Shown piece after piece: positions 9,001 to 15,000 of a stretch of 64,000 nt of DNA. This stretch comes from a virus (lineage: Duplodnaviria; Heunggongvirae; Uroviricota; Caudoviricetes). Position 1 is the first letter of the stretch, and every line of letters begins with the position of its first letter. The position numbers are program-made. The stretch lies in IMG/VR virus record IMGVR_UViG_2654588054_000003; one strand, written 5' to 3'.

Positions 9001-12000
9001 CGTGTATTCACTCGTTGGAATGAATACACAGTGCTTATTCGTACTAATAAAATACCCAATTTTCTGTTTCTTGGTTGTGTCCAAAGTTATATTCAATATC
9101 TGGTGTTGATGTATCAATATTCTTCATACCATCAACAAGAGTTGATACAACAGCCAAATCTTGTTTGATTCTCATTAAATGGTATTTCTTCCGGCGCAAT
9201 AAACTTTCAATGGCAAGTTTCTTCGTTGGGAATGCAAAAGATCTTTCTGCATTTTTTGCTACTTTCTTAATTGCATATCTATTTCTCCTTTGTTTCCATT
9301 CCTGTAACCACTGATTTGGTGCTGGTTTAAAATTAACAATCCAATGCGCAGGAACCAACCATGCATAATGCTCTGTCTGATGAAAAGCTATATATTGAAG
9401 TGCGAATATTTTTATCCCATCTTCTTCAACTGTCGCCTGGAATCTCCAGAAAACAGGCATTCCATCATGTTCAGTTTCTGATTCAGGAAAAGGTACGCTC
9501 CATGATTTTGTCATATCTCACCTCAAATAAGTGGTTTGCTGCCTAATTTCATTTTCTGGCGACCAACACAAGTCACCTCGCCGTCAGTTGTTTTGATTTC
9601 CGGTAGCCTGCCGCGTAAATGGCTACGTTTGGAAGACATACACCAGTTTCTGGTTGCTTATGTCCAAACTCATTCGCGTACACAATGGCCGCTCGCTCCA
9701 GATTGCGTCTGTATTCTTTCTGTTGCCAGATCACGTCCTGTGCCATGAACTTAATTGGCTTAGCGTCTTCTATGCGCTCAGGCGTTTCGTGAGTACCTTT
9801 AGCCTGAATCTGCGCTCTGCTTAGAGTAGGGCGGTGTAATACTTCTGAACTTATTGCTTCTTCGCGGGCCAGTACGCCGTTAGCTAATGCCTTTGCCTTT
9901 AAACGCTCACGACGACGAGAACGTGAATTGCCTTTGAACTGAGTTCTGCGTGTCATATAGACCTCCTGATGAACTTTGGTGGTGTGGTAGGTGGGAGACC
10001 CATTTCGACCTGTTTCGGCCTACTTCAATTCGGCAATAGTCCCGCAGGCCTCGCCGCTTTACGTGCGACATATTCCCGTCCATGAACCCTTCACCACACC
10101 CCAAAGTTCACTTTGGTTATTGCGCTTTGTCAGCGCCGTAGATTCATATTCGAATCGTTGTATATTCACCGCCCTGGTGAGTAATGCGTCCTGCTGACGA
10201 CGATAATAATGAACCAATAGTTCGACATTATCAAGAACTATTGGTACGAATTTTGGTGATTTATTAACTCTACGAAGTATGATTCTGATATATAAGGAAA
10301 TTTATTTTTGAAAATGTGGCTGATGAAGGTTATGCGGCAGGGATCATAACTGCATGGTTTAGCGAGTTACATCAATAAATACAATTGGTTATGTTTTTTA
10401 GGTGGGCGAACGTGAGGCAAAGAAAACCCGGCGCTGAGGCCGGGCTAGATTTTAAAGTATTTATCTTTTAGAGATGTAGATGTAAAACTTTTCGCCTTTG
10501 AAAATTTTTTGTCATCAGAAGGGCTTATGAACTCATCTTTTTTGTAGGGAACCGCTAATGCTGCATCACGTCTGCGAGGCAGCTTGCTTACTTCCTCGCG
10601 CTTTTTCATGATCAGTTATCCTTTAATAACCTATACAGTTTTGTAGGGGTACATCCTGAGGATATTGTTAAGTTCGTAGCACGCCTTTTCCGCCCATCAT
10701 CGTATAAACGAAAACCAGTAGTAGACGAATTTTCTGCGTCAAAAACTATAGACAGTATAGCGTCCCCAGACTTTTTTTGCCATTCGCATGTGCCGTTAGT
10801 TGGTTTCGTCATCTGTAGACGCCAGTCAAGAACGCCATCACTTATAGCTGAGAGATCGTTTAGTACATCTAGTACGGATTGATATCTTTCATTTGGATCT
10901 ACATGAATGCATTTGTTCACTATTGTTATTAATTTTTTATGTATATGGGGAGGATACTCTTTTAATGGATAGCAGCCATTAATTATCGACTCTCTGAGTT
11001 GTTCAATCGTGCTAAATGCAGATCTTTCTCTTTCAAAATTATCATGTCCAACACACATTCTATATATGGTTAATCCTGCCTGATATATGTCATATGTGAA
11101 ATTATAATCATTTGTTGATAAAGAAAAATATTCCGGTGGCACATGAAAATGATATCCAAACTCAGGCGCAGCTCTCGATTCCTCATTGACTAACTGAGAT
11201 AATCCAAAGTCAGATAGCATGGCCTCATTTCTGTTTGATATCATAATGTTATTAGGTTTTATATCAAAATGCATAAGACCTTTTGAGTGTATATGATAAA
11301 GTCCACTTAAAAATTGAATGGAATACCGTATTATCTCCCTGCTTGTAAGATTATTTTTTTTCATTAATTGGTTTAGCGAACCATTATGATAAAATGGCAT
11401 GGCTATATAGATATTGCTCTCACATTGAGCAGCATACTGAACTTGCACAATATTTGGATGTGCATGTTTATAGAGAAGCCTTGCTTCATTAAAGTAGTCG
11501 TCGTGGTTAGTGTTTTCTTTTTTTTCTATTTCTTTAATCACCAAGTCATGAGCTAGGTGTCTGTCATGAGCCAGATATACTTTTGAAAAACAACCCTGTT
11601 CTTCTAGATCACTAATCCATTCGAATTCTACATCAGCTCTTTTGTATGGAGTTAGCATCCCCTTACCTCCGCAGATAGTGCAGCCAAAACAGCTTCATTT
11701 GTTTCAGTTGTAAAACCAGAATTATCGATTCCATTTATATTGCGGTGTGACTTCAATATTTCTTTATACTCGATCTCTGTTAGGTTCAATGATGATTTCA
11801 TGCCAGATTTTCTAATAGTGTAATATTTTCTTACATCACTGCTTGAAAATGCTTCTTGAATAACAGCTTCTATATAAAGGCGGTCAATGCTAAGATTATC
11901 AGAGTTTGATTCAGTAACGCGTATGGCAGCTAATTCAACATTATATAAATTAAGAATGTCGAGGATGTTATTTCTCACATATTTTAATTTTTCTGGTGTG

Positions 12001-15000
12001 TCTAAGGTCGAAGGTATTTTAATAACATCAACACATTTGAGTGCAGACTCATTAGTGCAATATACAACAAAAGATGTAACTTTGGGCGCCGCTCTAACAC
12101 CTAGTATTCTCATTTTTTATATCCTATTTTAGAATCAGGCCGCATCTCTGCGACCATCCATCATCCAAACGTCTCTTCACTCATCCGAAGAAGCAGCAAT
12201 CCGGGTCAGCACGCACAAGCTCAAGCGCATCAGTCAGCGAAAGTTCAGTACTGTACTGATGCCATTTCATATCCTTCCGCATCCAATAGATTTTCCATCT
12301 ATCCAGAGAACGTATGTACTTGATTCTTGCTGATGGCAGGATGTTTGTTTCACCTGGATTGCCCTGCCACACGGGGCGCTGTTCGCCGATATCTATCGTT
12401 TGGTCATTGATGCTATAAACAATATCCAGTTCATTGCGGATATGTTCAGGCGGCCTTATGCTTTCAATGAATTGGTGAACTTCTTTTTTTACTGCTTGAT
12501 ATTCAAGGTCATTGAACGCCATCTATCCTCCTTACCCAAACGTCTCTTCAGGCCACTGGTTACCAGCTATGTGACGATGAAGTCACGAACTTTTCAGCCA
12601 CTCCCTTGCCTCGATGTCATCCAGATGGCGAGATTGCTTCAGAATACCAGCTACATACTCCACCTTTGCTACTTGATGATAAGGCAACGTTATAGGCCTG
12701 TGATCCTGGTTAATGCTTGTAAATTGGTATTCTCCATCTCTGTCATAGCCAAGAACCTTAATCATGTTGTGTCCTTCAACGGTTCTGACAAACACCTCAT
12801 CACCCGGGAATACTTTGGTGTTAGGCTCAATGAGTACATATTCTCCTGATTTTATTCTGGGCCACATGCTGTCTCCTTTCACACGAAGACCAAAGGCATC
12901 TGGATCATCGCTATAAATTTTGAGCCACCCATCGCGCTCTTCGGTCATCTCGATGGCACCATCAACACCAAGAATTGCCTCACCAACCACGCGCACTAAC
13001 CCTTTTTTTAATTTGCCAACAAATGAAAGAGTATCTTCATCATTCGCTCCATTTAACGAAGTGCCGTGCTGAAGCCAAACAACATCAACGTTTAGAAATT
13101 TCGCAAGCGCATTCATTTTTTCCTGACGCGGTAAAGACTCAGCATTAAACCATTTGCTAACGCCTTTGGACGAAAGAGAAAGGGCACGGGCTATAGCCAT
13201 TCCCCTACCATGTTCATCAAGACCAGCTTCTTTACAGGCTTGCGCTAGCCGCTGGGCGAATTCTTTGCGCACTTTTTCATTCTGAACCATGAGTACGATA
13301 CTAAAGCACTTGCAAAAACTTTCAGTTCAACCATAATACGTACTGAAAGTACGAAAAAGGATATTCCTATGCAAAATCTTGATGAGCCGATTAAAGGTGT
13401 CGGCATCCCTGAAGTTGCGAAGGCTTGTGGAGTTAGCGAAAGGGCTGTCTATAAGTGGCTCAAAAACGGCTTCCTCCCTAAGACTGAGTTTTTTGGGAAA
13501 ACTAAATACGCATCAAAAATCGAAGAGATTTCTGGTGGCAAATATCAAGCAAGCGAAATGCTTGAAATAAGCAAAAAGAACCTTCTGGCTGCATAAGTAA
13601 CACCGCTATTTTCACAATGGACATTCGTCCTACGTCGCTGACAAAGCGAGTCCCAATATATCTGACCAACTAAGGCTACATGCGTTTCCACGCATACCTT
13701 TCAACTAACTATTCACTATTGGAAATCTTAAGAAATGGAACAAACAAGTTACAGCAAACTATCCCAGCGTGACGTTGATCGCGCAGAAACAGATTTACTC
13801 ATCAACCTGTCAACGCTTACCCAGCGCGGTCTGGCAAAGATGATTGGCTGTCATGAATCGAAGATAAGCAGAACGGACTGGAGATTTATTGCTTCGGTCT
13901 TGTGTGCTTTCGGAATGGCATCAGACATCAGTCCGATTAGCAGGGCTTTTAAGTATGCGCTTGATGGACTCACCAATAAAAAACGCCCGGCGGCAACCGA
14001 GCGTTCTGATCAAATACAAATGGAATTTTAACAACATCCAACGAGGTAATTATATGCGAAAAACGCAGGAAAATAAACGCGTTAATCACCGAAAAGATGT
14101 GCTACGTGACCAGTTTTATCAGGGGGTTAATCCAGCAATAGCTGTGCCACTGAGAGAAATACTTAACAGGTACAAAACTTCGGAGAAGTCAAAATGAGCA
14201 TGAATCTTATGGCTAAGGCCATGAATATAAAGGTTGGCAACCCACTGAGAAAACTGGTTCTGATTAAACTTGCCGATAACGCCAATGATAATGGCGAATG
14301 CTGGCCTTCATATCAACATGTCGCTGACCAGTGTGAGGTGAGCAGATCGACAGTAAAAAGTCACATTAGGGCACTGGAAGATATGGGGCTTTTGAAAAGG
14401 GAATTCAGAAGAAAAGGAGAGCTTAACCAGTCAAACGTTTTTTATCTGACGTTGGATAATGCACAACAAATCCAACCAGAATTAGGTGGGGCAGGAGCTG
14501 ACCGGGGTGGGGCAGGAGCTGACCTAGGGGGTGGGGCAGGAGCTGACCCCAGAACCTATCACTCTTTTGAACCAGTCAATGAACCTAAAAACATTAAGTT
14601 CGAACGTGTCCGAACGAAGTGCGAAAAATCATCTGACCGTCACGAAGAAACCGACAAGGCATTCGAGGAAATATTCTGGTGTGCAGGCATGCGGAAAGCC
14701 GGGAAGAAAAACGCAGCTTCGGCATTCAGAACACAGTTCAGGGAATGGCGTAAAACTACCGGGGGTACGGCAAGCGAGTTTGCCACGATGCTGGCAGAAG
14801 ACATCGCATGCAGGAATGGTAAGCAGTTCGGATTCGACAGGTTGTTACCATCGAGCTACCTGAACGGTCAGCGCTGGAACGACGAGAAGCCAGAAACCAT
14901 TCAACCACAAGCCAGACCATCATCCGCAATCACCGTATCGAAAACTGGCTACGTGTTTTTCGACAGGTGAACCATGAAATCAAAAATCAAATCGCTACTG

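Follow-up and report, generated by a model that had tools for sequence, protein, structure and literature searches.

In the 933W-type prophage immunity region, the Stk kinase is the middle gene of an exchangeable three-gene cassette found in at least four phyla

The virus record IMGVR_UViG_2654588054_000003 (Duplodnaviria; Heunggongvirae; Uroviricota; Caudoviricetes) was analyzed over a stretch of 64,000 nucleotides (nt), hereafter the window, which contains a 933W-type immunity region and, downstream of its cI repressor gene, the gene for the protein kinase Stk. The immunity region is a 3-kb block with 100% identity to JLK-2012 and 99.9% identity to 933W, to phi24B, and to many other Stx1 and Stx2 phages. 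In lambda, the slot between cI and pL/N is occupied by rexAB. Here, the cargo block lies between cI and N/nutL, and the order given in the 933W annotation is cI, L0084, L0083, stk, L0081, and the terminator tM. All of these elements are on the minus strand.

The maintenance promoter pRM (also pM), which lies in the OR operator region and is the start of the lysogenic transcript, was located at 13298-13325 by transfer of the 933W annotation (locus coordinate plus 7899, at 99.9% identity), and the same element is annotated in the phi24B record. It is followed by the 235-amino acid (aa) cI repressor (12583-13290), identified by open reading frame (ORF) calling, by Pfam matches to HTH_3 and Peptidase_S24, and by the 933W annotation. 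Next is a 113-aa ORF (12181-12522; 933W L0084, phi24B vb_24B_13c) that matches Pfam DUF3024 (2e-31), and then three closely packed genes that are referred to here as A, B, and C. A (11652-12113; 933W L0083, phi24B "res") encodes a 153-aa protein with a predicted RuvC fold that lacks the first catalytic aspartate; B (10612-11658) is stk, which encodes a 348-aa Hanks-type kinase with a conserved C-terminal domain of about 75 aa; and C (10445-10609; 933W L0081, PHROG 4063) encodes a basic peptide of 54 aa with an isoelectric point of 10.0. The stop codon of A overlaps the start of B by 7 nt (ATGCTAA), with a GGAGG sequence 8 nt upstream, and C starts 2 nt past the stk stop codon. Directly after C is the intrinsic terminator tM (10425-10446; 8-bp stem, 6 GC pairs, T-rich tail), at the position equivalent to tM of 933W and at the end of the cI operon. 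The hairpin at 10446-10425 is the sole strong minus-strand terminator of the region, and the terminator scan detected none between cI and tM. A promoter scan of the region returned 10 sites against 10.4 expected, which is chance level and thus neither favors nor disfavors an internal promoter.

Much of this layout had been described in an earlier note on this DNA. The four ORFs (cI, 113 aa, 153 aa, and the 348-aa kinase) were confirmed on the minus strand, the last three at the coordinates it had given, as were the overlap between the 153-aa ORF and the kinase gene, the eukaryotic-like nature of the kinase (Pfam Pkinase, 2e-46), and the placement of co-oriented cargo downstream of cI in a rexAB-equivalent slot, with no minus-strand terminator before tM. 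The end of the block, placed by the note at 10612, had to be moved, as C lies beyond it, followed by tM. The note had also regarded the segment as AT-rich and acquired. This holds for A (GC content 0.346), stk (0.354), and C (0.376), and for the cassette DNA as a whole (10453-12138; 0.353), but not for the 113-aa ORF (0.447), which resembles cI (0.452); the GC content of the whole window is 0.497.

The relationship between A and B was investigated from both sides. A genome scan, limited to one genome per species and seeded on A peptides only, returned 39 loci in Gammaproteobacteria, Betaproteobacteria, Alphaproteobacteria, Bacteroidota, Firmicutes, and Acidobacteriota. A Stk-like kinase (35-57% identity) is encoded directly downstream of A, on the same strand, in every one of these (39/39), and A and B lie -8 to +10 nt apart in each of the 49 pairs measured among these and other loci. 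A scan of viral contigs was seeded on kinase motifs only, and the best 80 of its 259 loci, down to 37% identity, were inspected; A is directly upstream of the kinase in all 78 of them that include upstream DNA. Additionally, the pairwise identities of A and B are correlated (Spearman 0.73, 703 pairs).

The three genes also change places as a block. Two viral contigs, L136 and L168, share 99.5-99.7% identity with the window from 13600 to 12139/12142 (cro to DUF3024) and from 10452/10447 to 9500 (tM to N), and identity breaks off at both edges of the cassette DNA. Between these flanks is unrelated cargo, which consists of a 177-aa ORF or of a 162-aa and a 206-aa ORF (L136 3885-4881; L168 3882-4969). 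Conversely, in a phage whose S24 repressor (242 aa) is a different one, A (about 98% identity), B (97%), and C come directly after the repressor gene, and DUF3024 is absent. Similarly, Klebsiella and Proteus prophages with diverged A proteins have the order repressor, A, kinase, small ORF, with differing repressor types and again without DUF3024. Among complete E. coli genomes, the cassette was found in 225 of 5,426, and it is full length in 224 of the 226 places where it occurs; the carriers (about 4% of complete genomes) are mostly Shiga-toxin-producing strains. A, B, and C are translationally coupled and are inherited and exchanged as one unit.

The cargo of L136 and L168 was also examined in its own right. 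None of the ORFs has a significant Pfam match, the 177-aa ORF has no PADLOC match, and the 206-aa ORF has a hydrophobic C-terminal stretch; these are candidate new prophage defence genes.

The upstream neighbors of the 39 genome loci are mixed, and include repressors, restriction-modification genes (type I and type IIG; methyltransferases), and AriA/OLD-type ATPases. HTH/S24 repressors account for just 5-7 of the 97 neighboring ORFs scanned at these loci, and no fourth conserved gene was found upstream of A. The A-B-C unit occurs both in prophage immunity regions and beside defence genes, in at least four phyla. It constitutes a detectable defence cassette; neither A nor C has a match in PADLOC v2, which has no model for these two partner proteins. 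Two further loci were noted. On one metagenomic contig (L011, 1-5585), Wadjet (JetABCD) genes of JetB/JetC/JetD type are followed directly by a distant A-B pair (43% and 41% identity), which is a defence-island context. In Pseudoalteromonas sp. ASV78 (L028, 6462-7494), A is intact and the kinase gene is split by a frameshift, and is thus likely to be a pseudogene.

The third gene, C, is small, and its standing as a gene was assessed by position, sequence, and substitution pattern. In nearly every locus, an ORF of 50-66 aa starts within a few nt of the kinase stop codon, often with an ATGA overlap. An ORF of at least 45 aa that starts -12 to +30 nt from the kinase stop was counted in 34 of 37 loci (about 90%), where the positional background is 0.35 (binomial 5e-13). 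The peptides share an MKK start, an invariant arginine within [LYFP]-x-[STR]-R, and a C-terminal Y-[FIVL]. When a hidden Markov model built from the proteobacterial peptides was run against 858 ORFs, the ORFs at the C position in 7 of 10 non-proteobacterial loci ranked within the top 20 (hypergeometric 1e-10). The ratio of nonsynonymous to synonymous substitution rates (dN/dS) of C is 0.06-0.54 where synonymous sites are unsaturated, and in the one pair with dS clearly unsaturated for all three genes, it is 0.23 for C, 0.07 for A, and 0.08 for B. By these values, C is a real gene that evolves faster than A and B, and all three cassette genes are under purifying selection.

The kinase itself scores 158.8 bits against PF00069 (cut-off 31.7), and its closest solved homologues are the bacterial kinases Stk1, StkP, and PknB (7e-43), to which the match stops at approximately residue 273. 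The catalytic residues K42, E58, H130-F-D132-I-K134, N137, and D150-F-G152 are invariant among 34-38 family members. The remaining ~75 aa form a domain specific to the Stk family, in which W279 and W293 are invariant and for which no solved homologue was found, as the PDB matches stop near residue 273. By these features, Stk is an intact kinase of the Hanks type whose C-terminal domain is specific to its family. At 99.9% DNA identity, the gene is the stk of 933W and phi24B; however, literature accounts treat Stk as a single protein, whereas here it is the middle gene of A-B-C and extends far beyond Stx phages.

Hanks-type kinase domains are shared with other phage defences, namely PD-T4-6, MADS Mad6, staphylococcal Stk2, and BREX PglW. 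Against PADLOC models, which have no cut-off, the Stk kinase domain scores 169 bits with mad6 and up to 128 bits with PD-T4-6; against NCBIfam models, it remains below the required levels (122 for MAD6 NF047741, with a cut-off of 460, and 45 for PglW, with a cut-off of 990). The partners and the C-terminal domain of these four systems differ from those of Stk. A Vassallo preprint describes a kinase system without detail.

The PD-T4-6 matches, together with the treatment of Stk as the exclusion factor in the literature, would be in line with a self-sufficient, single-gene abortive-infection kinase for which A and C are mere co-transferred genes. PD-T4-6 is, however, a stand-alone single gene, an architecture that Stk does not share: A is always upstream and C usually downstream. 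The strict adjacency of A and kinase (39/39 and 78/78) holds across phyla, with start and stop codons overlapping throughout, the identities of A and B are correlated, and all three genes are under purifying selection. Passengers would not be expected to remain coupled across phyla or through exchange among unrelated contexts, and such a single-gene kinase is therefore considered improbable.

Protein A has been labelled a resolvase in the databases, as "RuvC-like Holliday junction resolvase" or "RuvC family protein" (PHROG 3875 and RefSeq) and as "res" in phi24B. Its score against Pfam RuvC is below threshold (14.2 bits, cut-off 22.2, E 0.042), it belongs to no PADLOC v2 or NCBIfam family, and a profile of the A family against PDB sequences gave chance matches only, with no solved RuvC among them. 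An AlphaFold model made from 31 homologues, on the other hand, is of high predicted local distance difference test score (pLDDT 92) and has an RNase H-like RuvC fold, with secondary-structure elements that correspond one to one to those of RuvC, in the same order. An exhaustive profile search yielded 446 A-family clusters, all of about 150-170 aa, and residue conservation was counted over 121 family representatives.

The sequence of strand 1 is GVRAAP in A and GIDPG in RuvC, which places R7 of A at the end of the strand, where RuvC has its aspartate; strand 4 is AIR in A and AIE in RuvC, so that R65 (or lysine) aligns with the RuvC glutamate. This mapping was made from secondary-structure order and a weak hhalign alignment (probability 2.3%, used solely to support the strand-1 register), without superposition. 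R7 is present in 120 of the 121 representatives, and position 65 is arginine in 96 and lysine in 25. Five further residues are invariant (G5, R47, R78, E82, and E87, each 121/121), while E68 is found in 119 and E140 in 116. The canonical acidic tetrad of RuvC (the strand-1 aspartate, the glutamate after strand 4, and two acidic or histidine residues on the last helix) was not found in A. A RuvC shape without this tetrad suggests that A is a pseudo-nuclease or a non-canonical enzyme. In comparison to the RuvC resolvases, including bacterial RuvC and lactococcal phage RuvC (4ktw), A thus has arginine for the first catalytic aspartate and arginine or lysine for the catalytic glutamate, has no detectable sequence similarity to the solved proteins, and was found only with a kinase in the loci examined.

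Published data bear on when these genes are expressed. As cited there, stk is co-transcribed with cI and Stk aborts HK97 infection (PMC3564112, PMC3681748); the kinase is nearly inactive in the uninfected lysogen and is switched on upon HK97 infection (PMC3681748), and its phosphotransfer is reported as tyrosine-directed (PMC3681748, PMC3564112). Riley et al. 2012 (PMC3342100) matched two spots seen only in 2D gels of the phi24B lysogen to two phage proteins, one of 17,096 Da ("p23 of 933W") and one of 13,472 Da ("p24"). These values equal the masses calculated for the 153-aa ORF, A (17,096 Da), and for the 113-aa DUF3024 ORF (13,473 Da). Both genes lie downstream of cI and have cI-like profiles in reverse transcription quantitative PCR (RT-qPCR); neither the MASCOT scores of the two spots nor the analysis of variance (ANOVA) was significant (PMC3342100). 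Similarly, Veses-Garcia et al. 2015 (PMC4651098) listed two genes named res and vb_24B_13c, together with cI and stk, among those with unchanged expression on induction. The phi24B record settles the assignment: res is the 153-aa A, and vb_24B_13c is the 113-aa DUF3024 gene.

The published proteomics and RT-qPCR thus point toward lysogenic expression of the two small ORFs. Expression together with cI, as the earlier note had expected, has published support (PMC3564112 on stk; PMC3342100 for proteomics and RT-qPCR). The note had named a lack of expression of the small ORFs in lysogens as an outcome that would count against its proposal, and the literature points the other way, with the proviso that the spots were not statistically significant.

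These data also bear on the database label of A. A working phage Holliday-junction resolvase, active in phage recombination or packaging, would agree with the PHROG 3875, RefSeq, and phi24B labels and with the predicted RuvC fold. However, the protein was seen in lysogen gels only, and its transcript tracks cI rather than the lytic genes (PMC3342100). The first catalytic aspartate is replaced by arginine in all but one of the 121 representatives, the Pfam RuvC score is below cut-off with no sequence match to solved RuvC proteins, and A is always paired with a kinase, including at loci without recognizable prophage genes nearby. A function as a resolvase is therefore highly improbable, and the label is probably wrong in function.

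In position, expression, and reported effect, A-B-C resembles lambda RexA/RexB, which are likewise cargo between cI and pL/N, are transcribed in lysogens from pRM, and abort infections by heterologous phage (PMC3564112). The proteins are unrelated: Rex consists of a sensor and a membrane protein, whereas the genes described here encode a RuvC-fold protein, a soluble kinase, and a basic peptide, and no Rex family was found among the Pfam, PHROG, or PADLOC matches.

The remaining cargo gene, which encodes the DUF3024 protein, has a different distribution. It is a full-length member of Pfam DUF3024 (PF11225; 108.9 bits, cut-off 24.9) and of the PADLOC candidate PDC-S43 (5e-42, residues 1-113), these names being a candidate label and a DUF number only. 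In the literature search, DUF3024 was named in passing in one paper and PDC-S43 a single time in one paper, and neither a function nor an experimental paper was found. The earlier note had proposed structure prediction for both small ORFs; this gave the RuvC fold for the 153-aa protein, but for the 113-aa protein an AF2 model (pLDDT 90) with no strong fold match.

A viral scan seeded on DUF3024 returned 78 loci, and neighbors were counted in 35 dereplicated contexts. An S24-peptidase repressor is encoded directly upstream of the DUF3024 gene in 32 of the 35, and these repressors share just 16-43% identity. The genes downstream vary, and include ParA-like, NYN, HipA-like, M78 peptidase, HicB, PDC-M03A, and RmrA genes, as well as many of unknown function. 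For instance, the order in Salmonella is cI, DUF3024, ParA-like ATPase, and in Rouxiella two copies of DUF3024 follow the repressor, with no kinase. In the Salmonella prophages (L014 and L015, 5448-6554), the slot holds a ParA/MinD-like ATPase of 357-368 aa (AAA_31, CbiA), an unusual immunity-region moron.

The earlier note had presented both small ORFs as candidate partners of the kinase, which amounts to one three-gene defence system made of DUF3024, the 153-aa ORF, and Stk, with the small proteins as sensors or regulators. In the window, the three genes are adjacent and co-oriented within one operon; DUF3024 is likewise found with the cassette in 933W-like phages, Erwinia (L013), and Proteus phages (L017, L103-106), with diverged copies; and it matches a PADLOC defence candidate. 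For the 153-aa ORF, the proposal is borne out, as it is an obligate partner of the kinase at the loci examined (39/39 and 78/78). The 113-aa DUF3024 gene, in contrast, mostly occurs without a kinase: none of A, B, and C is present at 48 of the 78 DUF3024 loci, among them loci whose DUF3024 copy is 99% identical to that of the window, and DUF3024 is present in just 2 of the 39 A-seeded genome loci. Additionally, phages with a 97%-identical kinase cassette lack it, its GC content is that of cI and not of the cassette, and its constant neighbor is the S24 repressor. A three-gene system that includes DUF3024 is thus already contradicted by the distribution of the genes, and is regarded as very improbable.

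The boundary between the two units is marked by several features. A 14-nt exact direct repeat, GAAGAGACGTTTGG, brackets the DUF3024 gene, with one copy between cI and DUF3024 (12536-12549) and the other just past the DUF3024 stop codon (12165-12178), both on the minus strand; these are two copies in the window against 0.03 expected, and the repeat may be a module junction or a recombination motif. A relative without DUF3024 (L081) has a degenerate single copy of the repeat after its repressor. Further along is a hairpin with a 7-bp stem and a GAGA loop (12138-12155, minus strand), which lies at the junction of the cI-DUF3024 unit with the cargo slot. The fold of 12114-12183 has an energy of -15.1 kcal/mol (z = -2.25), identity to the phages with alternative cargo stops at 12137-12142, at the hairpin, and L081 retains the hairpin with one stem pair changed from C-G to U-A. 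Riley et al. (PMC3342100) reported a DUF3024 transcript of about 10^5 times and an A transcript of about 10 times the level of cI. This gap could be due to attenuation or processing at the hairpin, or to an unrecognized promoter.

Judged from its neighborhoods, the DUF3024 gene goes with cI repressors of the S24 type, marks the upstream end of a slot for variable cargo, and does not belong to the kinase system. Its product may act as an exclusion factor on its own, or it may modulate repressor cleavage or RecA. The linkage to S24 repressors makes the latter as plausible as the former, and modulation of repressor cleavage or of RecA is reported for 434 Hex (PMC3564112). Because the gene marks the edge of a hotspot for cargo in lambdoid prophages, it is useful for mining further prophage-borne defences.

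Overall, the explanation favored here, which taken as a whole is judged somewhat more probable than its negation, is a single pRM-driven operon that ends at tM and consists of two separable modules, the A-B-C cassette, acting by the mechanism outlined below, and the DUF3024 gene. The searchable literature and PADLOC v2 yielded nothing on the architecture of three genes, on its spread among phyla, on the pseudo-RuvC nature proposed for A, on C as a conserved partner, or on the linkage of DUF3024 to repressors; the gene annotations (since 1999) and the Stk exclusion phenotype are already known.

How the cassette might act can be considered in light of the phage that triggers it. Stk is one of the few prophage abortive-infection factors with a reported phage trigger, and HK97 gp41 is reported to be its activator. 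In HK97, the gene order is 40 - erf - 42, with erf at L213 2176-2781 (HK97 24175-24780), and its product matches Pfam ERF (2e-44); the GenBank product label is "Gp40", apparently a slip. By gene order, then, HK97 gene 41 is erf, whose product is a single-strand annealing protein of the Erf family. Lambda-type Bet, Exo, and Gam are encoded in the window, and Erf is not. A resident phage with Bet, Exo, and Gam and without Erf would allow the cassette to ignore its own recombination functions.

A possible mechanism is that A, probably together with the C-terminal domain of the kinase, keeps Stk inactive. A would detect the recombination machinery of the invader (Erf), or DNA structures made by that machinery, and the freed kinase would phosphorylate host or phage proteins, such that infection stops. 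C may serve as a stoichiometric regulator, either as a pseudosubstrate or as an inhibitor of antitoxin type, or may be a dedicated substrate. The specific version, in which an unnamed, phylum-spanning immune system of three components uses a dead RuvC-fold protein as the sensor of Erf or of annealed or branched DNA, C as the pseudosubstrate, and the kinase as the released effector, is put forward tentatively, as one that is more doubtful than probable. If true, it would be the first case of a pseudo-resolvase as the pattern-recognition subunit of a kinase effector, and it would explain how 933W Stk tells HK97 from its own Red-type recombination system.

Several points weigh against the favored explanation. 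More distant kinases, beyond the best 80 of the 259 viral loci, could lack A. For the homology of C across phyla, positional enrichment is significant, but no single sequence match is (E 0.06-7). The mapping of RuvC residues onto A is weak, and E68 and E140 could still make a non-canonical active site. The identity of gp41, the reported trigger, with Erf follows from gene numbering, whereas the GenBank product label is "Gp40". No experiment on A or C was found in the literature searched, which did not cover the primary Stk papers, and had stk alone been sufficient to exclude HK97, then A and C would be modulators rather than required parts.

The tight, coupled architecture with small partner proteins could alternatively reflect a kinase-toxin/antitoxin addiction module or a host-physiology module, in which A, C, or both neutralize the kinase, the module stabilizes the prophage or reprograms the host, and exclusion is a side effect. 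The near silence of Stk in uninfected lysogens (PMC3681748) would agree with this, and kinase toxins with small partners are found in a like slot, as a HipA-like gene follows DUF3024 in another phage. However, the reported phenotype is a trigger-dependent abortive infection, and outside prophages the cassette adjoins restriction-modification, Wadjet, and OLD/AriA-type genes, which are typical of defence islands. An addiction or physiology module as the main function is thus rather unlikely; it overlaps the favored explanation and does not exclude it.

The literature searched contained nothing on how the nearly silent Stk becomes activated, and no later work on 933W Stk, on defences that combine RuvC-like proteins with kinases, or on HK97 Erf with a tyrosine kinase. 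A and C provide two concrete candidates for sensors or regulators of Stk, which makes the activation mechanism directly testable, and an experimental system is already available: lysogens of 933W or phi24B, with HK97 and its gene 41 (erf).

Elsewhere in the window, the N gene was identified by Pfam at 9573-9956, and a 156-aa ORF lies at 9044-9514 on the minus strand, between N and ssb/ea10. The latter belongs to no Pfam family, is a homologue of HK97 Gp45 by the annotation of Stx2 phage I, and is conserved among lambdoid phages. On the plus strand, 15078-17984 encodes a 968-aa replication protein with Toprim primase and DnaB-like AAA_25 helicase domains, the latter interrupted by an intein (Hint and a LAGLIDADG homing endonuclease). 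In contrast, 933W and JLK-2012 have O/P at the replication position, and JLK-2012 also has an IS3 insertion. The window is therefore not JLK-2012 itself, although their immunity regions are 100% identical. The difference between O/P in these phages and the 968-aa protein here makes the window a mosaic of a 933W immunity region and a different replication module.

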